From the NCBI GenBank assembly GCA_039545335.1, contig BCIN01000005.1:496001-560000 (forward strand): a DNA stretch of 64,000 nucleotides, read 5' to 3'. Every line of letters starts with the position of its first letter. The first letter of the stretch is position 1. Both the position numbers and the translations under genes were made by a program. Below, one piece after another: positions 8,276 to 23,561 of this stretch. The notes beneath the pieces were generated by a model, which ran no database searches, had not been told where the DNA came from, and saw only the letters and a list, made by a program, of their open reading frames with translations. Source of the DNA: Kondoa subrosea. Lineage: Eukaryota.

Positions 8276-10818
8276 CTAATCCTCCCTCCGCCGCTTCGCA
8301 TCATCACCTCCTAAATCTTCGTCTGCAGCTCGCTTCGTGATTGGCTTGAATCCCGCTGCTTTTCTAGGCACCATCGACGCTTGAGGTACATTGAGAGTAG
8401 GTGTAAGATTGATTTCAGGTGCTGGAGTACCGCTTTCTTTCGCTTTGCCTTTACCCTTGCCTTTCCTTTTACCAGCTGGCTGTTTCGAAGGATCGACAGA
8501 GACAGATGATTGAAAGTCTTCTATTTGAGGTGCAGTCCTACATCGAACACGATCAGCTCACTTCTGCATGCAGAGTATAGAAAAGAGACGCACATTTTGT
8601 TACCAACACTCAGAAGCATAGTAGCCGAACCCAATCGCTCTTGCCGAGCTTGGAAGGCAGCGTTGGTAGACAATGGAGTATCGCCTGAAGCCATAGCAGC
8701 AGCTTTCTTCTCGTCTTCATATTTCTTGAGACGCTTGACTTGCTTGTTTGTTCCACTACCTTTGCCATGAAATTCATGCGAAAGATATCTGTGAACACAA
8801 GCCTATATCAGCGAGAAATTTTGCAATCAGCAATGTGCACTTACTTCCAAGCTTCCTTCTTTGTCATCTCCCGACCAAACTCGTCAGTGTACTTGATATC
8901 GATATTGGGTTTATAATCTTTGAAGCGATCCAAATCTCGGGCAGCTTGTTCTCTATCTCTTTGCTTGTTCTCCAATTCGCGTTGATGTTGATCTTTAGAT
9001 GAGCCAGCAGCTTTTGAAGCTTGTCGACTCGCAGCAATTCGAGCTTCATCTTCTCTTCTTGCAGCTAACCAGCGTTGTTTCTTCTTGTACTCGTCCTCCG
9101 CTGCAATCTCTTCCGGTGTCATAGGTTTGACCAAACCTTGTTGCTTGAGCAAAGCCAAAGTAGCTCCCATTCCGCGAGAATGTAAATATTCACCACCTGT
9201 CCCTCCTAAAGCTCGATCAGTCTCTTCTTCTTCTTTCTTGATTCGCTCTTCTTCTCCAGCTAACAATCTTCTTTCCTCTTCTTCCTCATCCAAATCCATA
9301 CCGTTCGTTTCGCCCGCTTCAAGTTCAGCAACAGGTTCTTCCATTTTGACTTCCCTAACAGTTTCTTGCGCAGAAGAAGTAGAAGTAGCAGGAGGAGCGG
9401 GTGATGTTCGTTCTCTTTTAGGTAAAGCAGGTTGAAGAGTGATGCCTCGAACGAATTCAGAAGTATCGTCCAAGACCAATCCTTTGTCCTCTTCTAGCGT
9501 TACATCTTCCTCATCTTCTTCTTCCTTGACTTTGTCCATATCCACTTCTTCGTTTGTCGAAGGTAAAGCACGTTCTTTGAGTTCAGTTACAGCTTTCCTG
9601 TTCTTCGCTCGCCGTTGTCGCGCAAGAGAAGATTGCAGCTCTTCGTCATCCAGTAATGCTTGAGCATCAAGTTCTGCTTGAGATGTTCGATTTATAGTAG
9701 GTGCTGGAGAAGCTTCATCTGGTTTTCTTGTGGAAGTAGGTTTAGATTTCTTCTTCTTCTGCAATGGTATCACATGGTCAGTATACAGAGGGTATAGGAG
9801 AGATGAGGAGGGACGTACTTTGAGCTTCTTGAAGCCTGCATCACCTTCTTTCAGGTAATCACCTGAATCGAGATTCTTCTCGTAGTTCAAGTTCATGAGC
9901 GTCTTTTGCAGTTCTTTAGCTACTTCTTGTTTAGATTCAGAGGTCTTGATGACTGGTTTGGCAACGGCTTCAAAAGTATTTGCATCATCGAATTCAGTTT
10001 GATGAGAAGAAGACGCCGCGCCTAATCTGAATCCGGAAGAAGTCTGTTGAATAGAAGGATCATCTTTGATATCCACATCGTATTTCGATAAGATCCCAGC
10101 TTTCTTTCCGGTTGAGAATTCCTGATCATCCAAACCAGTATATTGATGAGCGTTTTTGCCTTTAGATTTGAGATCCAACCGTTCTTCCGTTCGCTTGTAA
10201 TCTGCCATATTGACGTTCTCCAATTCATCATCATCGTCATCCACACCCATTAACCTTGAATCCCTCAAAGTCAAGATACTGTCTTGACCTTCTTTGAAGT
10301 CATCTAGATCATGACCGACTTTGATTCCGCGTAGATCAGATTCATCATAACGAGCAGCTAATTCCGCATCCAAAGCTTCTTGTTCTTCTTGACGTTTCCT
10401 AGCCAATTCAGCAGCAACTTCTTTTGCTCTCTTTTTAGATTTCTTAACCCAAGCTTTAGCTGCATCTTCTTCCGTATTACCACTACCTTCACCTAAACTT
10501 TTGCCAGTCAATTTATTCTTGAGATCTCTTTTGGTTTTGGCTTTCTCCAATCGTTCATTCAAAGCGGTTGAAGTGCGTAAGGATTCCTCTGCATCCCTAA
10601 CAGCTCTAAAGTTCTCAACAGCGATCTCATCTTCTGTTTTGACTGGTTCTTGACCTGCTTGGGTTGGTGCAGAAGGATCGCCTAGAGGTTTCAATCCAAG
10701 CGAGAGTCGAACTTTACTATTTAAGGAGAACGCGAAGGGAATAAGCTGGGTCATAACAGTAAAATGGAGGTAGAGGGACTTACTTGGTCTCCTCCAGCGA
10801 GAGGGATTCGGCAGACAT
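8276..10818 (-). CDS. SNU66: U4/U6.U5 tri-snRNP protein Snu66/SART-1
   Basis: HIND-like motif SLSLEETN|KVRLSLGLKPL; IKVGHDLDDF, LTLRDS, YKPNIDIKYTDEFGREMTKKEAWK typical of SART-1. Confidence 0.92.
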
Positions 10819-11044
10819 GATTGTTGACGAACGAGGAATTATAAGGGTCGAAATGTAACAAGGGGGTTTAAGTTTCTCGCCACCCTTATTTTCGGTTGAG
10901 AAACGAGTTTCAAGGGTTACCCTTTCTCCATATTTTCATACTTCAAGCTTGGGACCTTCTCGTACTAGCTCTACAGCATTCACAGTACTCTACAGTCCAC
11001 CTGAAGCCGTGCTCTGGCCTTGATCTGATCTGATTGCACCTGGA

Positions 11045-13813: not shown

Positions 13814-16294
13814 ATGGAAGTAACTCCTCAAGCTCAAAAGGCGGAATCCCTCGATGGAGATCATCATATCAATCTTCCAGAGCACGCAGCGCGCACGCAG
13901 AAGGGTGTAGCCGAAGTAGAGGCAGTCAATGCTGTGTGGGACAAGAAATCTAAAGCTTTCCTTTTCTTTGGGTGAGTTTGCTTTTCGATTTTCAAGCGGG
14001 AATTTTTAATCTGATAAGAACTTTTCTCTCTTAGAATCGCTTGTATCGCGTACATCTACTCCTTAGATGGCTCGTGAGTGTTTTCCTACTCTTTCGAAGC
14101 TATATACTAATGATCTAGAGCAGAACAACATATCGTAAGGTTTGAGCCAATCAGCTTGCAGCAGCTCTGATTTGGGACCGAAACAGAGTACCAATCTTTT
14201 GCTACCTCTTCTTTCTCTCTTCATTCCACTCTCTCCACCATCTCAGTTGTTCAAGCGATAATTTTAGCAGTTTCAAAGCCTATTTCGGCCAAGATCGCAG
14301 ATGTTTTTGGTAGAGCTGAAGCTTTCATCGTCGCTGTCATACTCTATGTTGTCGGTTATATCGGTATGTCTCCCTCTCCATTTGAGTGCCGGGGCTGACT
14401 TGGCTTTCAGTTGTCGCGTCTTCTTCTGGCATCACTAGCTATGCCGCAGGCGCGGTTATATATTAGCAAGTGCCTGTTTGCAAATAGCTCGTTGCTGACG
14501 CTGACAATTCTGTGCAGTATGGGCTACGCAAGTGTGCAAATCCTGGTACAGGTAAACTAATCTATCTCCTCAATCAACCTGGGCTAAGTCAACGCCTGCA
14601 GATTGTTATTGCCGATGTCACCACTCTTCGATGGAGGACGTTCATCTCTGCCCTCGCTTCTGCTCCATTCTTCATCAATGCTTTCGTCAGCGCGAACATT
14701 GCAGCTGGAGTTTTGCCAAACTGGAGATGGGTCAGTAATATTCCATGTGAACAATGAGTCATACTGATTCACATATAGGGTTATGCTATGTTCGCGATCA
14801 TCATTCCAGCTGGTGCGGCGCCGATCATCCTGACGCTTCTTTGGGGTCAACACAAGGTAAGTTCCAAGCGCAAGACTGGATTACCGTTAATCAATCTTTT
14901 GTAGGCCAAGAAATTGGGTCTATCAGCAACTGACTATCAAAACAACAATATTGCCGCAGATCAAAATCATCATTTATCTATTCCAAAGCGGTTCATCCAA
15001 GCTATGATCGAAATCGATGCTATTGGACTCCTTTTGATTGGCTTCGCTCTAGCTTTGATCCTCGTTCCTCTTACCATTACCAATAGCGGAGCAAGTGGAT
15101 GGGATTCACCTTCCGTTATCGCTATGCTGGTTTGCGGTTTCGTGATTTTGGGTATTACGATTGCCTATGAAGGATGGTTTGCAAAGGTGAGCATGCATTA
15201 CTAGTGTCGTTTGCCTTCAAACTGACCCTTTATTGAAAGTTCCCTGCTGTCCCTGGCCGGTTCATGCGCAATCCTACTGTCTTGGCTGCTTGCACTATCG
15301 CGCTCTTCGACTTTATTTCTTTCTATCTCCAGTTTACCTATCAATGTGAGTCAGAATTGGTACTCCGTGACTCCTACTGACTTTCTTTTGCATAGATTCT
15401 TTCATCTACATTACTCGCTTCCCCGAATGGTCAATCAAAGATTTAGGCTATTTCGCGAACGTGAGTTGCTTGCTCGATATGAGATTCGCTGCTGATCATC
15501 CTATAGACGCAATCACTGGCCTTGACCTTCTTTGCTATCTTTGCTGGCGTTTATATTCTTATCTTCAAGCGATTAAAGGTAAGCTTCAAATACTTATAAC
15601 CCGCTTGATACTCATTTCGATCCAGGTCCTACTCTTCGTCGGTCTGGCTATCCGTCTTCTAGGTGTTGGCTTGATGATACATGCTCGCGGTGCAAAGTGA
15701 GCCATACCGTATCAAGTTGTACACTGCTGATGGTCAATCGCAGCGGATCTACTGCTGAGTTGGTCATTGTACAAATCATTCAAGGCGCTGGAGGAGGAAT
15801 CGCGGCCGGAGCAACTCAAACTGCCGCACAAGCTGTTGTGCCGCATCAAGATCTTTCTGCTGTTACTGCAGTGTACTTGTTGTTTGCCGAAGTAGGGGGA
15901 GCTATCGGTACCGCTATTGCAGGAGCTATTTGGAGGAATAGTGAGTACCTAGGATATGCTGTCAACATCTGCTAATATAAGTTTAGCCATGCCTAATCAA
16001 CTCGATCAACGCTTGTCTGGACTACTGGATCAAGCGACTATCGATTCCATCTTTGGCTCCATCACTACAGCAGCCGCATATCCTCGCGGTCAACCTATCT
16101 TTGAAGGCATTCGCGCTGCATACACCAGAGTCATGGAACTGATCCTCATTCCAGCAACGGTGCTTGCAGTCATTCCTCTGATTGCTGTCTTCTTTATCAA
16201 GAACTTGCCTTTGGGCAACGTGCGCAACGTGGTGGAAGATGAAGACGTGGCTTCGCTGGATTCGAGGACGTCTGATAGGAAGGACAAATATTAG
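13814..16294 (+). CDS. Siderophore-iron transporter, MFS ARN/SIT family
   Basis: GVAEVEAVNAVW, KPISAKIADVFGRAE, IVIADVTTLRWR, QIIQGAGGG...QAVVPHQDLSAVTA...EVGGAIGTAIAGAIW; many introns, one GC-AG at 14466-14517. Confidence 0.9.
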
Positions 16295-16799
16295 AGATGT
16301 GTGGTAATGGGATAATCGAACAGAGGAAATGGATCTCATAGGATTCAGCTGAAACTCCTAACGAGCGAAGTACAGCATTGCAGTACAATTTGTGGTGCAG
16401 AGGCTTGCTACTTTGTACAGCTGGGTGCGAAAGCAATGTAAACATGCTCGTTCACAACTTAAAGACGAGCAGCTCTCTTGTCTAGAATCATCCACTGCCC
16501 TGTCTTATAGCAGCTCTCCTATGGAAACAGCTATGAAATTCCTGGCAGCAATCCCATCGCGATCCTCTTCCTCCCTGGACACATGGAGTAAGTGCAATTG
16601 TTTGCATTGCTGAAACTCCTTGGCTAATCCTGTCGAGCTCTCAACAGGTCACTCGATCGATCAGATGGGAGAGCCAGGACAGACGTGAAGGGGCCCGTCG
16701 TGAGCGGAAGCAACCACATCCGTTCTGCATGGTGCTCTCCCTTCTGAGATAGATCTGGGAACAAAGACTGGCTAATCCAGGTCTCCCGAGATCTCCATA

Positions 16800-16880
16800 T
16801 GGACGACATGGACAACTGGACGACATGAACGATTGGACAACTATGGACGACTGGACAACTGGACGACTGGACGACTACGA
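16800..16880 (+). repeat. Imperfect tandem repeat of TGGAC(G/A)AC-like units (second copy 20094-20174)
   Basis: tggacgacatggacaactggacgacatgaacgattggacaactatggacgactggacaactggacgactggacgac. Confidence 0.75.
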
Positions 16881-17704
16881 CACAGCAAGGGGAACAAGCT
16901 CTCTTCTCGGCNAAGGGAAGCGCTGCTCTCTTCTCAGTAACCCTTCTGCTTGTTCTTTTCTAGCTTTGTTCCTTCTCGGACAGACGTCTGCATATGGTAA
17001 CAGAGATATAGCATAACCAAAAAGACGCAAGAGCAAAGCAGTCGTTCTATCAAATCCTACCATGACTGCTTATTCACGAGTAAACTGAGTGTGATGATAG
17101 CTGATCAGCTCACTGCGCGTATACCTGATGTGGAATCGAGTGGAAGTTGAAGACAGAAAGCCAGACATTGAAATGCCCCTTGACCTCGAACGAAGATTCA
17201 GCGTCGATATCTTGGCCACTGGTACATCACGTGCTATCTCTGGCTGTGCTGTGTATGCGCAATAAATGAAGACTGCAGACAGGTCGAATTCGCTGTCGTT
17301 GCAGGAGTCTATTGAACTTTCAGCTCCTGAAGAACATCGTTGGAACTCAGACTATGCGCAACGAAGATACAATGACCGTTGCTGTTGACTACTGCTGAGA
17401 ACTTGGGCTTTGCTTTTATTTCCCACCACTGCCTGCGAATTCTTGACTCTGACCAAATGATGCTTCTGATGCAATTCATATCAATGGCTAGCTCGATTAG
17501 ATGTATCCTTTTGAACCTCTCACCCTGAATCGCCGAGCATCTTTCGTTTCCCGAGCTGGTCTTGCATGACATTTTCTGAACGTTTCTCATCCATCAATCA
17601 ATACCTATCTCTAACTATCTATGTCGGGACTCATCTGTAATCGTAACATGACCCTGTCCACAACCCATTACGTGCAACACCCCCATGCAAAAAAGTAGCA
17701 AAAA

Positions 17705-17856
17705 CGACCACCCATAGGATTGAACTACTGGAAGGATGTCAGGTATGAAACCACTTTGTGTGCAGACAGGTAACTCACTGGACCTCCCGATTAACAGTCG
17801 GACGCTCTAACCAGCTCTGAAAGAGGATATGGGTTAGGGATGCGCTAGAAAGAAAA
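17705..17856 (-). pseudogene. 5'-truncated copy of the intron-split tRNA-Asn gene (exons 2-3 only)
   Basis: Identical to 20999-21150: exon 3 17705-17727, intron 17728-17778, exon 2 17779-17816. It breaks off inside intron 1 at 17856, so exon 1 and the GT donor are missing. Confidence 0.8.
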
Positions 17857-19592
17857 TTTCGATGCTTTGCTACTCGTTCTTCCTACCGTTACCAATAGCG
17901 GAGCAACTGGTCGGGATTTGCCTTCCGTTATTGCTATGTTGGTATGCGGTTTCGTGATTTTGGGTATCACGATTGTCTATGAAGGCTGGTTTGCGAAGGT
18001 GAGCGTTCATTACTAGTGTCTTTTGTCTTTCAAACTAACCCTTTATTGAAAGTTCCCTGCTGTTCCTGGACGATTCATGCGCAATCCTACTGTCTCGGCT
18101 GCTTGCACTATCGCGCTATTTGACTTCATTTCTTTCTATCTACAATTCACCTATCAATGCGAGCTAGAAATTGGTACTTTGTATCTCATGCTGACTCTTA
18201 TATAGATTCTTTCATCTACATTACTCGCTTCCCAGAATGGTCAATCAAAGACTTAGGCTATTTCGCAAACGTGAGTTGCGTGCTTCGAAGGAGAATCAAC
18301 GCTGATGATCCGATAGACGCAATCACTGGCCTTGACCTTCTTTGCAATCTTTGCTGGCGTTTATATTCTTATCTTCAAGCGATTAAAGGTAAGCTTCGAA
18401 GACCTGTGTTTCGCTCGGTACTCATTTTGATGTAGGTTCTACTCTTCGTCGGTCTGGCTATCCGTCTTCTTGGTGTTGGCTTGATGATACATGCTCGTGG
18501 TGCAAAGTGAGCTATACCTTATCAAGCTGTACACTGTTGATGGTCAACCGCAGCGGATCTACTGCTGAGTTGGTTATCGTACAAATCATTCAAGGCGCTG
18601 GAGGAGGCATCGCGGCTGGAGCAACTCAAACTGCTGCTCAAGCTGTTGTACCGCATCAAGATCTTTCTGCTATCACTGCAGTGTACTTGTTGTTTGCCGA
18701 AGTAGGGGGAGCTATCGGTACCGCTATTGCAGGAGCTATTTGGAGGAATAGTGAGTTCCTAAGATATACTCTGTCAATATCTGCTAATGTGAAGCTAGCT
18801 ATGCCTAATCAACTCGATCAACGTTTGTCTGGATTATTGGATCAAGCGACTATCGATTCCATCTTTGGCTCCATTACTACAGCAGCAGCATATCCTCGCG
18901 GTCAATCTATCTTTGAAGGCATTCGCGCTGCATACACCAGAGTCATGGAATTGATCCTCATTCCAGCAACGGTGCTCGCAGTCAGGACCCGGGACTAAGC
19001 GGTTTGAGGTTATTTTTTTTCTGGGCCACTTTTCGAGCGAAATTTTGGATTTCTTGTTACCGTTTGGGCCACTTTTGAGCCTCGTTTGGGTCAGGTTATT
19101 GCAGATTTGGGCCAGTTTTTGGATTGGAATTTCGGTCAAAGGGCAAGTTTATTGCCTTCAGCGCTACAATTTGTACCCTTCAAACTCCGTCACGTCTGAA
19201 CTCCCCAGCGAGTCATGAACGACTTGCGCTCGAGGGACAACGACGACAAGGAGGAACATTTTTTTAAGATTTTCGATAATTTTGGCCCGATTACGTAATT
19301 TTTGTCCGCCTACCTTGTTAGTACACCGGGCCACTTTTGCGAGCGATTTTTGAAAGGTTGTTACCCCTTTTGGGCCAGTTTTGAAAGGCTTTTGGCGCGG
19401 ATTTTGGGCCAGTTTTGGGTGCTGCTGGGAAACAACCTTGAACCGCTTAGTCCGGGGTCCTTCGCAGTCATTCCTCTTATTGCTGTCTTCTTCATCAAGA
19501 ACTTGCCTTTGGGCGACGTGCGCAACGTGGTGGAAGATGAAGACGTGGCTTCGCTGGACTCCAGGACGTCCGATAGGAAGGACAAGGATTAG
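17857..19592 (+). pseudogene. Diverged 3' fragment of the siderophore transporter, 5'-truncated and MITE-disrupted
   Basis: Homologous to ~15043-16294 with many substitutions; no 5' half; one donor changed gtgagt->gcgagc; 478-bp insertion in the last exon. Confidence 0.85.
18984..19461. mobile_element. Non-autonomous DNA transposon (MITE), 478 bp, ~32-bp imperfect TIRs, 8-bp TSD
   Basis: Left end AGGACCCGGGACTAAGCGGTTTGAGGTTATTT; reverse complement of right end AGGACCCCGGACTAAGCGGTTCAAGGTTGTTT. TSD TCGCAGTC at 18976-18983 and 19462-19469; the empty site is present once in the intact gene near 16165. Confidence 0.9.
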
Positions 19593-19661
19593 AGATGTGT
19601 GGTAATGGGATAATCGAACAGAGGAAATGGATCTCATAGGAGCTGAAACTCCTAACGAGCC

Positions 19662-21150
19662 AAGTACAGCATTGCAGTACAATTTGTGGTGCAGAGGCTT
19701 GCTACTTTGTACAGCTGGGTGCGAAAGCAATGTAAACATGCTCGTTCACAACTTAAAGACGAGCAGCTCTCTTGTCTAGAATCATCCACTGCCCTGTCTT
19801 ATAGCAGCTCTCCTATGGAAACAGCTATGAAATTCCTGGCAGCAATCCCATCGCGATCCTCTTCCTCCCTGGACACATGGAGTAAGTGCAATTGTTTGCA
19901 TTGCTGAAACTCCTTGGCTAATCCTGTCGAGCTCTCAACAGGTCACTCGATCGATCAGATGGGAGAGCCAGGACAGACGTGAAGGGGCCCGTCGTGAGCG
20001 GAAGCAACCACATCCGTTCTGCATGGTGCTCTCCCTTCTGAGATAGATCTGGGAACAAAGACTGGCTAATCCAGGTCTCCCGAGATCTCCATATGGACGA
20101 CATGGACAACTGGACGACATGAACGATTGGACAACTATGGACGACTGGACAACTGGACGACTGGACGACTACGACACAGCAAGGGGAACAAGCTCTCTTC
20201 TCGGCNAAGGGAAGCGCTGCTCTCTTCTCAGTAACCCTTCTGCTTGTTCTTTTCTAGCTTTGTTCCTTCTCGGACAGACGTCTGCATATGGTAACAGAGA
20301 TATAGCATAACCAAAAAGACGCAAGAGCAAAGCAGTCGTTCTATCAAATCCTACCATGACTGCTTATTCACGAGTAAACTGAGTGTGATGATAGCTGATC
20401 AGCTCACTGCGCGTATACCTGATGTGGAATCGAGTGGAAGTTGAAGACAGAAAGCCAGACATTGAAATGCCCCTTGACCTCGAACGAAGATTCAGCGTCG
20501 ATATCTTGGCCACTGGTACATCACGTGCTATCTCTGGCTGTGCTGTGTATGCGCAATAAATGAAGACTGCAGACAGGTCGAATTCGCTGTCGTTGCAGGA
20601 GTCTATTGAACTTTCAGCTCCTGAAGAACATCGTTGGAACTCAGACTATGCGCAACGAAGATACAATGACCGTTGCTGTTGACTACTGCTGAGAACTTGG
20701 GCTTTGCTTTTATTTCCCACCACTGCCTGCGAATTCTTGACTCTGACCAAATGATGCTTCTGATGCAATTCATATCAATGGCTAGCTCGATTAGATGTAT
20801 CCTTTTGAACCTCTCACCCTGAATCGCCGAGCATCTTTCGTTTCCCGAGCTGGTCTTGCATGACATTTTCTGAACGTTTCTCATCCATCAATCAATACCT
20901 ATCTCTAACTATCTATGTCGGGACTCATCTGTAATCGTAACATGACCCTGTCCACAACCCATTACGTGCAACACCCCCATGCAAAAAAGTAGCAAAAACG
21001 ACCACCCATAGGATTGAACTACTGGAAGGATGTCAGGTATGAAACCACTTTGTGTGCAGACAGGTAACTCACTGGACCTCCCGATTAACAGTCGGACGCT
21101 CTAACCAGCTCTGAAAGAGGATATGGGTTAGGGATGCGCTAGAAAGAAAA
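19662..21150. repeat. Copy B of the ~1.49-kb identical segment
   Basis: Matches 16368-17856 at offset 3294. Confidence 0.9.
20983..20998 (-). terminator. Pol III-type oligo(T) terminator (T5-GCTAC-T6) directly after the tRNA 3' end
   Basis: Minus strand reads ...GGTGGTCG TTTTT GCTAC TTTTTT. Confidence 0.7.
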
Positions 21151-21178
21151 CAGTTGGTAACCCACGAGCTAGGCAGTC
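20999..21178 (-). tRNA. tRNA-Asn(GTT) gene in three exons separated by two spliceosomal-type GT-AG introns
   Basis: Exons 21178-21166, 21110-21073 and 21021-20999 join to GACTGCCTAGCTCAGCTGGTTAGAGCGTCCGACTGTTAATCGGGAGGTCCATAGTTCAATCCTATGGGTGGTCG (74 nt). Acceptor GACTGCC/GGTGGTC, D stem GCTC/GAGC, anticodon stem TCCGA/TCGGG with loop CT-GTT-AA, T stem CATAG/CTATG with loop TTCAATC, discriminator G. Confidence 0.9.
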
Positions 21179-22212
21179 NATGAAATAAAGCGAAATTTCA
21201 AAGACAAACATATATCTGCAATAAGTTTTCTGTAAGACATTTTTTGCCCTACTCAGCCGCGCGGATGTTATATGTGTAACATGACCCACGAATGAGTGCG
21301 ACGATAGGGCGGTGTGTTGGGCGCGGAGCGCGTACAGTAGTTGTCGACGGTAGCCTACTGCATAGCCAATCGAGAATCTCGTTTCATCATTGGATCATCG
21401 TCGGGTATTTGTACTTAGATTTAGAGCGTAGTCACTGCTGGATGCCTTAGTACTCCATGAGACCTGGCAAAGATAATCCGAATCTCGTTTCTCATTCGAA
21501 GGTCGAGCAATAACCTTGGCTGCTGACATCGATTCTCTTGCCTGAAGTCTCTGCTCTATCTTCAGTCTTTTGTGCTAGAAGGGCTCGTCGAAGAAGCTGT
21601 CCTGCATCTTCGATGAATGTTGGCTATTGCCCGAACTCGGACTGAGTTTCTTCTCTGATGTACTCCGGGCAACTGAGCGCAATCTCCTGTCATTATGCTA
21701 GTGACTAGTCTACCTGTTGACAAGAGTTCTACCTTGTCATGCAACGCAAACGTGCCAGTGAAGGTCAAACTCTTCCAGTGTTTCGGCAAATGGACTGCCT
21801 TCTTACTTGCATGCTCAATCCTGATTTTATATCTCATGACATTGCGACGCCTTATATACCGCAACAGATTTCGAACCGCTCAACGAACGGGAACTTTGGT
21901 GATGGCAGTGCTGCTGGCATATGTATGTCGAGGTCGCGCTTGACCTTTACTCGGGCAACACGGCAAAGCGAGGGCGCTGTTCGAGGCACTGCAACGCTGT
22001 AACGCTTTAACAAGATCCCCAAATACTTCCGAAAGTCAACAAGAACGCGTTCCAAATTTAATGAAGACCTATATCTATATGTAGACTCGAAGAACAACAA
22101 TACATCCAGTTTTAGACTCGAACCTCTTCTTCTTTTCTTCTTCATTCCCTCTCTTTTCCCAACTCACTTGTCTCACACTCACCACACTCTTTTATTCTAC
22201 CACAGTATAACA

Positions 22213-23561
22213 ATGGCTCGCATTACTTTCGCTCTTCTTTTCATTGCCTGCGCCCTCTCTATGGCTTCAAGTAAGTTTCAGTCTGAGCACGATCCTACTG
22301 CGCTAACTCTGTCTTACAGACGTCTCTGCTGCTCCAATCGATAGCAATATGCTCGTTGCTCGCGCTGGACACGTGTCGAGCAAAGTCACCTCGAGCGTTG
22401 CTATGCCTGAAAAGACTGCTCACCACAAGGAATCTCACAAGAAGGAACACAAGAAAGAGAAGCACCACAAAGGTCAATCTACGAGCTTTCTCCCCGCGAG
22501 CTTTAACTGACATTCTCGTTTTAGAACATGAACATAAACACACCAAAGGCGATGGTGAAGATGCCAAGAAACACCACCATACTGCTCGCGCAGTAGAAGA
22601 GAAGCATCACAAGGAGGAAAAGCACTCGAAGCATCATCACAAAGGTTTGTCATGTTCTCGCCTTGAAAGCTTTTGATTCTGATCCCGCAATAGAACACTC
22701 TGAAAAGTCTGGTGAAGAGAAGAAGCATCATCATGTTGCTCGCGCTGAAGAGCACGAGCACAAAGGCGAAAAGGAAGAGCACAAAAAGGAACATCACAAA
22801 GGTGTTTTTCCTTATCTTGCCCAGAATCACCTCTAACTCATTTTTCTTTTGTAGAGCACAAAGGTTTGTCTGCTCACAGACTTGAGCAGCACCTCTGACA
22901 TTTGCTATCTCTGCAGAACACCACAAACACGGCAAGGACAAGACTGGTACAGAGCGCAGATCTGAACCTGAAGAACACAAGAAGCACGAAGGGCACGAAC
23001 ACAAGCATTCTTCTTCCACTGTACACTCTTCGACTGTCCATTCTTCCGCTCAGGCTTCAGCTACGCCAGTCCCTGCATCCACTTGCAAACAAGTTACGAC
23101 CAACAAGTATGACAAAACCTATTCCAACATGTCTGGCGAAGCTACTTTATCTGAAGTCTCTGTATGTTTTCGCTTGTTCAATAGCCTTACGTTTTTAAAT
23201 TAGCGGTTTGCCAGTACAACACTGAAAAGTACAAGACCTTGAAGTCCTTCTACGAGGCTTGGAGAGCTGAGTGCATCTCAATCGTCGGACCTGAGAACAT
23301 GCACCACCGGGTTGCTTTCGAACCGGAGCATGGAGAAGGTAAGTCTGGCCTTGTGTTTTCATCTCAAAGCTTATTTCGATCGCCAGGTCATGTTGAGGCC
23401 GCTTGCTACGGACAGCAGAAGGATGCTCAAGGTCACTGGCACAAGGATTCTCCTCTCGTAAGTTCAGATGCTCTTGTCCACGAACGTGTACTGATTGCAA
23501 GCTTTCACAGACTGACCGAACTGCTCAAGTCATCAAGGGTATGGGCTTGAACTGTGCTTGA
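22213..23561 (+). CDS. Secreted His/Lys/Glu-rich protein with a small Cys-containing C-terminal domain
   Basis: Signal-like MARITFALLFIACALSMAS, then exons such as TAHHKESHKKEHKKEKHHK, EEKHHKEEKHSKHHHK and EEKKHHHVARAEEHEHK. The model needs a 9-nt exon (22855-22863) and probably a 5-nt exon (23157-23161). Confidence 0.7.

Follow-up and report, generated by a model that had tools for sequence, protein, structure and literature searches.

The removal of introns from tRNA by an endonuclease and a ligase and the removal of introns from mRNA by the spliceosome are taught as separate processes, and the fungal tRNA splicing endonuclease is known for introns at position 37/38. A standard review sets these systems against each other and, in its available text, mentions no overlap between them (PMC10275265). 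Spliceosomal introns are nevertheless described in genes that are not transcribed by Pol II. The U6 genes of S. pombe and other fungi encode a small non-coding RNA and combine an upstream TATA, an A block, an unusually distant B block and an oligo-T stop with one to four spliceosomal introns that have canonical donor, branch and acceptor sequences (PMC5855946). Pol III transcribes the S. pombe U6 gene, which has a TATA box and an intron that houses the B block, and excision of this intron by the spliceosome has been demonstrated; in S. cerevisiae SNR6 (U6), the A and B blocks are spaced ~200 bp apart (PMC5855946). Lichen-forming ascomycetes provide a Pol I example, in which ectopic spliceosomal introns of ~50-60 bp reside in rDNA and a 57-bp intron is excised by yeast from Pol I rRNA (PMC8527467). 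Cyanidioschyzon merolae, which appears to be without TFIIIC subunits, has disrupted and permuted tRNA genes, and their introns are of the bulge-helix-bulge type cut by the tRNA endonuclease. The C. merolae tRNA genes with disrupted A and B boxes retain a TATA-like element and a T-stretch (PMC3978253). Our literature search returned no publication that describes a tRNA gene with a spliceosomal intron, and its one phrase match read "non-spliceosomal tRNA introns".

The locus described here lies in a 64,000-nucleotide stretch of Kondoa subrosea contig BCIN01000005.1, referred to below as the window. ARAGORN found no tRNA gene in the raw unspliced DNA, and Rfam gave no match at its gathering thresholds and no tRNA match at E <= 10 across 17400-21500. 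Excision of two inserts (55 + 51 nt) leads to an ARAGORN call, and excision of either one alone yields no tRNA. The joined exons (13 + 38 + 23 nt) make up a 74-nt tRNA-Asn(GTT) on the minus strand (21178-20999), in which the acceptor stem has 7 bp, the D-arm, anticodon arm and T-arm can all form, and the loops carry their conserved nucleotides. In tRNA numbering the inserts fall at positions 13/14 and 50/51. Every element reported by the initial annotation was recovered on the minus strand where it had been placed, with inserts adding up to 106 nt. In the direction of transcription, the features are as follows.

21210..21215, minus strand: TATA-like element ATATAT, at -37..-32 from the mature tRNA 5' end
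21179, minus strand: ambiguous base N, tRNA position -1
21166..21178, minus strand: exon 1, 13 nt (acceptor 5' strand, positions 8-9, D-stem 5' strand)
21171-21166, minus strand: first half of the A box, inside exon 1
21111..21165, minus strand: insert 1, 55 nt, spliceosomal type (donor GTGGGT, branch CTAAC, acceptor CAG)
21073..21110, minus strand: exon 2, 38 nt (D-loop, D-stem 3' strand, anticodon arm with GTT, variable loop, T-stem nucleotides 1-2)
21022..21072, minus strand: insert 2, 51 nt, spliceosomal type (donor GTGAGT, branch CTGAC, acceptor CAG)
20999..21021, minus strand: exon 3, 23 nt (remainder of the T-arm, acceptor 3' strand, discriminator G)
21020-21010, minus strand: intact B box, inside exon 3
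20994..20998, minus strand: T5 run, primary Pol III terminator-like, starting at the first base past the discriminator
20983..20988, minus strand: T6 run, backup terminator-like, 5 nt beyond the T5
17689..17856, minus strand: truncated duplicate with 100% identity (final 40 nt of insert 1, followed by exon 2, insert 2, exon 3, T5 and T6)

A virtual-splice scan of the whole window generated 15,497 products (4,799 single and 10,698 paired removals), and a tRNA appeared in two of them, both at this locus. No other register restores the tRNA, and the exact junctions are GT and AG at both inserts. As a separate observation on the joined tRNA-Asn(GTT), its acceptor stem contains two G-U pairs side by side.

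Both inserts resemble the introns of neighboring genes. The local reference set consisted of 25 introns supported by open reading frames, which are 46-73 nt long and have GTRNGY donors, a CTRAY branch sequence 10-34 nt from the 3' end, and YAG acceptors; the two inserts fit this profile in all respects, with the branch A of CTAAC located 17 nt from the 3' end of insert 1 and that of CTGAC 11 nt from the 3' end of insert 2. The insert 2 donor, GTGAGT, is the commonest one locally (10 of the 25 introns). The insert 1 donor, GTGGGT, conforms to GTRNGY but was seen in none of them. The first 10 nt of the two inserts are alike at 9 positions, and just 1 of 300 local intron pairs shows such agreement. 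In addition, the first 8 nt of insert 1 can base-pair with its own branch region, and this 8-bp donor-branch pairing could hinder U1/U2 binding. The initial annotation had also drawn attention to the lack of T runs longer than four in the introns. The statement itself is accurate (the longest run in insert 1 is T4, and neither insert exceeds this length), but it does not count as evidence: because 23 of the 25 local introns are likewise without a T5 and only two contain one, its absence from the inserts is uninformative about Pol III read-through. An origin of the inserts from duplicated tRNA segments was considered and rejected, as their local alignments to the spliced tRNA were no better than those of shuffled sequences (P = 0.38 and 0.90) or of the reference introns. 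A search for an introner-type family found no further copies of either insert in the 64-kb window except for those in the tandem duplicate. Judged from the DNA sequence by donor, branch, acceptor and length, both inserts are of the spliceosomal (U2-type GT-AG) type.

This assignment sets the locus apart from the tRNA genes introduced above. Like canonical eukaryotic tRNA introns, which are removed from position 37/38 by the SEN endonuclease and a ligase, the inserts reside in a nuclear tRNA gene and need to be removed before the RNA can function; unlike them, they occupy positions 13/14 and 50/51, have GT-AG boundaries and branch sites, and show no endonuclease-type structure. The C. merolae genes differ in the same sense, with bulge-helix-bulge introns in place of spliceosomal signals. 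The likeness to the lichen rDNA introns is in being ectopic, spliceosomal, of similar size and in a gene not transcribed by Pol II; there the gene is transcribed by Pol I and the product is rRNA, whereas here it is a Pol III-type gene for a tRNA. U6, for its part, is a spliceosomal RNA that sits in the catalytic center, and the host of the inserts here is a tRNA. Splicing of S. pombe U6 is an experimental result (PMC5855946), while expression and splicing of the tRNA-Asn locus are predicted.

The sequences within and around the gene bear on which polymerase may transcribe it. Insert 1 interrupts the A-box region after tRNA position 13, and the contiguous A box at +8..+19 of a type 2 Pol III (tRNA-type) gene is absent. 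The earlier claim that intron 1 splits the A box is correct in this respect, but the break is partial: scored against the 11-mer TRGCNNAGTGG, which we take to be the A-box consensus, the unspliced DNA matches at 6 of the 9 specified positions and the spliced sequence at 7. The insert 1 donor contributes a GTGG that is one base out of A-box register and may serve at the same time as the second A-box half. The B box (T-arm positions 52-62) is complete, with G53, T54, T55, C56, A58 and C61 all present; as previously described, it is displaced by 106 bp relative to an uninterrupted gene, and it lies ~140 bp downstream of the A-box half. The upstream ATATAT was also borne out. It is an incomplete match to TATAWAWR, and its location agrees with the ~30 bp upstream of the start site that characterizes TATA-assisted Pol III promoters, as in S. 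pombe Pol III genes and fungal U6; within a zone of 20 positions, a TATA-like hexamer would turn up by chance with a probability of ~0.012. Its position fits the -34..-29 reported for TATA-like elements of tRNA genes (PMC3082873). At the 3' end, the T5 follows with a spacer of 0 nt and the T6 comes after it, which fits published criteria for an oligo-T terminator (PMC9278858). Five Ts are the minimal functional terminator in yeast in vitro, six give relatively efficient termination, and the spacer is <=7 nt in 251 of 270 yeast tRNA genes; a T5 followed by a T6 resembles the described arrangement of a weak primary and a strong secondary terminator (PMC9278858). A run of T5 or longer beginning within 5 nt is found at 0.35% of random window positions, and one accompanied by a second such run within 30 nt at ~1e-4 of them. 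The T5/T6 pair of the initial annotation is confirmed, at a chance of ~1e-4. A scan for bacterial promoters and terminators was empty and is irrelevant for a eukaryote. By these motifs, the flanks are Pol III-type beyond what chance would be expected to give.

The initial annotation saw a promoter paradox in this combination of elements. The elements are present, but the word overstates the problem given the precedents from U6, TFIIIC and C. merolae. Variable distances between A and B boxes are spanned by TFIIIC (PMC4090602), and TATA-bound TFIIIB can work without TFIIIC in vitro (cited in PMC3978253 and PMC3082873). The arrangement is not identical to that of S. pombe U6, where the B block is in the intron; at the tRNA-Asn locus the B box is in an exon and the A box itself is split.

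Part of the locus is present a second time as a tandem duplicate (17689..17856), from which the TATA-like element, exon 1 and the donor of insert 1 are missing. The duplication breakpoint (21150/17856) is within insert 1, and both inserts are older than the duplication. Repeat-induced point mutation was considered as the cause of the part of the repeat that is 90% identical and is unsupported, with 75 transitions versus 33 transversions in both directions. Relatives of the gene were sought in other sequence collections. The exact 38-nt exon 2 had no match in metagenomes. A loosened pattern had at least 125 metagenome matches at at least 120 loci; among the matches listed, 123 were intact genes, mostly of bacterial type with an encoded CCA, two were cut by contig ends, and none was a split tRNA gene or gave information on orthologues. 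A pattern specific for the split form gave no matches in genome contigs or viral contigs, in collections without fungi.

The best reading of the locus, which we put forward tentatively, is that Pol III, assisted by the TATA-like element, makes a transcript from which the spliceosome excises both inserts. The ATATAT at -37..-32 would position TBP/TFIIIB, and TFIIIC would assist by binding exon 3 at its intact B box together with what is left of the A-box region. Pol III would initiate slightly ahead of the mature 5' end, by a few bases, read past the T4 of insert 1, and stop at the T5/T6 adjoining the 3' end, giving a primary transcript of ~190-200 nt. Before splicing, this transcript is predicted to be unable to form the D-arm or the T-arm; for this reason cleavage by RNase P and RNase Z would probably have to wait for the spliceosome to take out both inserts, after which the ends would be trimmed and CCA added. 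The presence of two inserts in one 74-nt gene is hard to explain unless the gene remained in use after the first was gained. We infer that the first insert may have made the pre-tRNA a regular client of the spliceosome and thereby eased the gain of the second by reverse splicing. A reverse-splicing origin has also been proposed for the introns of U6. Several features speak against a working gene: insert 1 interrupts the A box, its donor is a variant found in 0 of the 25 local introns and can pair within the same insert, and the acceptor stem has the two neighboring G-U pairs. Moreover, Pol III-type flanks would persist for a time in a recently inactivated gene.

A rival view is that the locus is a non-productive relic, meaning that one of several tRNA-Asn genes once transcribed by Pol III gained intron-like inserts and now yields no functional tRNA, with the TATA-like element, the B box and the T runs as leftovers. 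According to a review, a eukaryotic tRNA gene that carries an ectopic insert and has many synonymous copies is usually considered a pseudogene (PMC4090602), and the split A box, the atypical insert 1 donor, and a rearranged region with a duplication breakpoint inside insert 1 are further points in favor of a relic. A dead gene, however, has no reason to acquire or keep a full, correctly spaced set of splice signals exactly at the tRNA junctions, the exons are undecayed and give a complete cloverleaf, and a second insertion into an already dead target of 130 bp is improbable. The lack of other insert copies, in a sample of 64 kb, also argues against a proliferating insertion element. We regard a relic as somewhat unlikely. 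The initial annotation omitted this option and offered two others, Pol III transcription with entry into the spliceosome or a Pol II precursor. In the latter case, RNase P and RNase Z would cut the tRNA from a capped, co-transcriptionally spliced Pol II RNA, whose promoter region is perhaps shared with a plus-strand gene starting near 22210. Coupling to Pol II is the normal state of affairs for spliceosomal splicing, the ATATAT could equally serve that polymerase, and the ~1 kb upstream is apparently non-coding. There is a precedent in the tRNA-Sec of Trypanosoma brucei, which is transcribed by Pol II and not by Pol III, although it has no introns and belongs to another lineage (PMC2943599). 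Unlike that gene, the tRNA-Asn locus has flanks that look Pol III-like: the T5 at the first base past the discriminator and the T6 5 nt on (P ~1e-4) have no Pol II role, and the TATA-like element is at a distance typical for tRNA genes (PMC3082873). In addition, spliceosomal removal of introns from fungal Pol III and Pol I transcripts is documented (PMC5855946, PMC8527467). Seven minus-strand open reading frames around the locus contained no convincing Pfam match that would indicate a host protein gene, the single weak match (E = 0.051) being below its curated cut-off. Between the two alternatives of the initial annotation, the Pol III one is favored because the TATA-like element is at a usual distance, the B box is intact, the T5 and T6 adjoin the 3' end, and no minus-strand host gene was detected; a Pol II precursor appears decidedly unlikely.

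Two further explanations concern the nature of the inserts and of the locus itself, and both are very improbable. Ectopic and multiple introns in the D- and T-arms of tRNA genes do occur in C. merolae and nucleomorphs (PMC3728597, PMC4090602), and the inserts could in principle be endonuclease-type introns with a bulge-helix-bulge of the kind found there. In that structure the cleavage sites lie in two 3-nt bulges on either side of a central helix of 4 bp, and at most 2 of the 4 pairs form for either insert, even when cleavage offsets of +-1 are allowed. Bulge-helix-bulge splicing was rejected on account of this incomplete helix, the unremarkable folding of the precursor, which is no better than that of shuffled sequences (z = +0.6), and the location of the inserts at positions other than 37/38; moreover, both have complete GT, branch and AG signals. 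As for a chance resemblance or an assembly artefact, a reader may be wary of the N at -1, of further Ns at equivalent positions in both repeat copies, and of the 1.49-kb stretch that is 100% identical between these copies. Against this stand the uniqueness of the locus among the 15,497 virtual splice products and the GT and AG found at the exact junctions of both inserts in the single register that works.

Returning to the twice-spliced Pol III transcript, it is quite possible, though short of probable, that the locus is the first known case of a spliceosome-dependent tRNA gene, with a TATA-aided start, a T5/T6 end, two splicing events, and a second intron gained by reverse splicing. If it were instead a dead copy, the locus would still document something rarely seen, a non-coding gene that has gained introns. 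If the reading is correct, fungal tRNA gene counts may be too low: ARAGORN and Rfam saw nothing here, and more such genes may therefore be hidden. The transcript would also constitute a compact natural substrate of ~190 nt for spliceosome assembly on a Pol III transcript without CTD coupling. A tRNA would join the short list of non-Pol II RNAs with spliceosomal introns, which includes U6, other snRNAs and lichen rRNA. Most broadly, a spliceosome-dependent tRNA would link tRNA splicing and mRNA splicing and represent a new way to make a tRNA.

Three exons and two intron-like inserts make up the split tRNA-Asn(GTT) gene, and the observation made there in the initial annotation was confirmed. Its parts are as follows:

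21215-21210, minus strand: ATATAT, at -37 to -32 from the mature 5' end
21178-21166, minus strand: exon 1, 13 nt
21165-21111, minus strand: insert 1, 55 nt (donor GTGGGT; branch site CTAAC, branch A 17 nt from the 3' end; acceptor CAG)
21110-21073, minus strand: exon 2, 38 nt
21072-21022, minus strand: insert 2, 51 nt (donor GTGAGT; branch site CTGAC, branch A 11 nt from the 3' end; acceptor CAG)
21021-20999, minus strand: exon 3, 23 nt
20998-20994, minus strand: T5 run, starting at the first base past the discriminator
20988-20983, minus strand: T6 run, 5 nt beyond the T5 run

Once joined, the exons give a 74-nt cloverleaf, identified by ARAGORN as tRNA-Asn(GTT). When either insert was left in place ARAGORN detected no tRNA, nor did it detect one in the unspliced DNA, where Rfam returned nothing at gathering thresholds or at E <= 10. 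Insert 1 falls between tRNA positions 13 and 14, at the border of the D-stem and D-loop, and insert 2 between positions 50 and 51, inside the T-stem on its 5' strand. For each insert a single register restores the tRNA, and in that register the insert starts with GT and ends with AG. As a control, all GT..G....YAG candidates 35-130 nt in length were removed in silico across the window, giving 15,497 virtual splice products (4,799 single and 10,698 paired removals). A tRNA was found by ARAGORN in two of these products, both at the split locus. Because only this locus scored, the split tRNA is real sequence anatomy and no product of the search. The second positive product uses an alternative donor at 21061 on the minus strand, 11 nt inside insert 2. 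Its use (21061-21072) lengthens the variable region of the resulting tRNA, and acceptance of this product is probably just tolerance on the part of ARAGORN.

Both inserts fit the profile of local spliceosomal introns on all counts. The 25 reference introns from the window, each supported by splice motifs and by ORFs on both sides, are 46-73 nt long, have GTGAGT as their main donor (10/25), carry CTGAT, CTAAT, CTGAC or CTAAC as branch site, its branch A lying 10-34 nt before the 3' end, and end in YAG. The GTGGGT donor of insert 1 occurs in none of them. The global similarity of the two inserts is matched by 12 of 300 local-intron pairs, and the identity of 9 of their first 10 nt is a level reached by only one pair in 300; that they are somewhat more alike than local introns lends mild support to a possible common origin. 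Insert 1 can pair its first 8 nt, donor included (21165-21158), with its branch-site stretch (21130-21123, minus strand) in a helix kept in the centroid structure, and insert 2 has an equivalent helix of 7 bp. Among the 25 local introns, a helix of 8 bp is found in none and one of 7 bp in a single case. Such pairing could hinder or regulate splice-site recognition.

Other origins and relatives were also sought. For the endonuclease route, which uses a bulge-helix-bulge, the 4-bp central helix reached at most 2 of 4 pairs at either insert, even at offsets of ±1, and the precursor folds no better than shuffled sequences (z = +0.6). The idea that the inserts arose as degenerate duplicates of parts of the tRNA did not pass a shuffle test (P = 0.38 and 0.90). 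Further copies of either insert, which an introner family would have, were not found within the 64-kb window beyond the tandem duplicate. Exact exon 2 had no metagenome matches. A loosened exon 2 pattern hit at least 120 loci, and among the 125 matches listed 123 were intact genes, mostly of bacterial type, and 2 were cut by contig ends. Neither the prokaryote nor the viral collection yielded a match to a split-specific pattern.

The split gene sits at one edge of a tandem duplication. Segments 16159-17856 and 19456-21150 are 99.1% identical, and over ~1.49 kb (16367/19661 to 17856/21150) the identity is 100%. By comparison, 15052-16172 and 17864-18984, which cover a major-facilitator transporter gene, are ~90% identical (75 transitions, 33 transversions); a 7-nt filler at 17857-17863 separates the repeat copies. 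The pattern suggests two very different ages within 15052-21150, possibly through recent gene conversion, a second duplication or assembly collapse. On the right, the duplication breaks off within insert 1 (21150/17856), which leaves a second, truncated copy:

17856-17689, minus strand: last 40 nt of insert 1, exon 2, insert 2, exon 3, T5 and T6

This copy is without exon 1, the insert 1 donor and ATATAT, and its B box is intact; it could bind TFIIIC without producing a tRNA. The intact gene is the original arrangement, with both inserts older than the duplication. Being 100% identical, the part that the two copies share is uninformative about selection. The only three Ns in the window are at 16912, 20206 and 21179. 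The first two occupy equivalent positions of the repeat copies, 3294 bp apart, as if an ambiguity had been called because reads came from both; the third is tRNA position -1.

The flanking signals, both of which had been noted initially, are statistically solid. From the window-wide hexamer frequency, the chance of at least one TATA-like hexamer in a 20-position zone is ~1.2%, and the usual zone of such elements in tRNA genes is given as -34 to -29 from the mature end (PMC3082873). Among 200,000 random window positions, a run of five or more Ts begins within 5 nt at 0.35%, and is joined by a second such run within 30 nt at ~1e-4. For S. cerevisiae, PMC9278858 describes five Ts as the minimal functional terminator in vitro, six as relatively efficient and four as essentially non-functional without adjacent structure, with a spacer of at most 7 nt to the first T-tract in 251 of 270 tRNA genes and further tracts tending to adjoin weak first ones. 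By these positions, chance figures and published criteria, the locus has the flanks of a tRNA gene transcribed by Pol III type signals. The lack of T runs longer than 4 inside the inserts is true as claimed but uninformative, since T5 occurs in only 2 of 25 local introns.

Within the gene, the B box is indeed intact (exon 3, 21020-21010), and its distance from the start exceeds that in an uninterrupted gene by 106 bp. The A box is split after tRNA position 13, as proposed, and the break is partial: against the 11-mer consensus, the spliced form agrees at 7 of the 9 specified positions and the unspliced DNA at 6. GTGG is supplied by the unusual insert 1 donor, one base out of register, and on this single case we infer that the donor may double as the second A-box half.

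The window, of ascomycete origin, has ~46% G+C and genes that include dynamitin and myotubularin. The split tRNA is 10 kb away from a gene for a SART-1/Snu66-type tri-snRNP protein (8841-10838, minus strand; Pfam E = 3e-108), a nearness that is probably coincidence. A small gene at 22210-23200 (plus strand) is divergent from the tRNA and has ~1 kb of upstream DNA in common with it; its product is rich in histidine and lysine, has a signal-peptide-like start and matches no family. Minus-strand ORFs around the locus had no convincing protein-family match.

The reading we tentatively prefer, from the arrangement of these elements, is a TATA-assisted Pol III unit whose ~190-nt transcript would undergo two spliceosomal splicing events, followed by end processing. 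Its main rival, somewhat less probable, is a recently inactivated gene copy that keeps its Pol III signals as relics. Excision of the tRNA from a Pol II precursor, also raised initially, is rather improbable because the T5 and T6 runs adjoin the 3' end.

The promoter 'paradox' of the split tRNA is softer than first stated, given several precedents. According to PMC5855946, the S. pombe U6 gene is transcribed by Pol III, has a TATA box and carries its B block inside an intron that the spliceosome removes; the same source gives an A-B distance of ~200 bp in S. cerevisiae U6 versus 30-90 bp in tRNA genes. A flexible linker lets TFIIIC span variable distances, so that intron-caused spacing changes are thought minor (PMC4090602), and in vitro transcription of S. 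cerevisiae tRNA genes that have a TATA box upstream can proceed without TFIIIC (PMC3978253). In C. merolae, tRNA genes whose A and B boxes are disrupted retain a TATA-like element and a T-stretch (PMC3978253). From Pol I rRNA, yeast spliced out a lichen spliceosomal intron of 57 bp (PMC8527467). Yeast Pol III pre-tRNAs are reportedly capped 5-22% of the time (PMC10275265), which leaves one supposed barrier to splicing fewer. The literature searched, mostly outside subscription journals, contained no account of a tRNA gene with a spliceosomal intron, which does not prove absence. According to PMC5855946, fungal U6 genes have up to four spliceosomal introns, others occur in U1, U2 and U5 snRNA genes and in rRNA genes, and their favored origin is reverse splicing followed by reverse transcription. 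The proposed twice-spliced, TATA-assisted Pol III unit would resemble fungal U6, and we rate the locus as belonging to a known kind, the spliceosomal introns found ectopically in fungal genes for RNAs that Pol II does not make.
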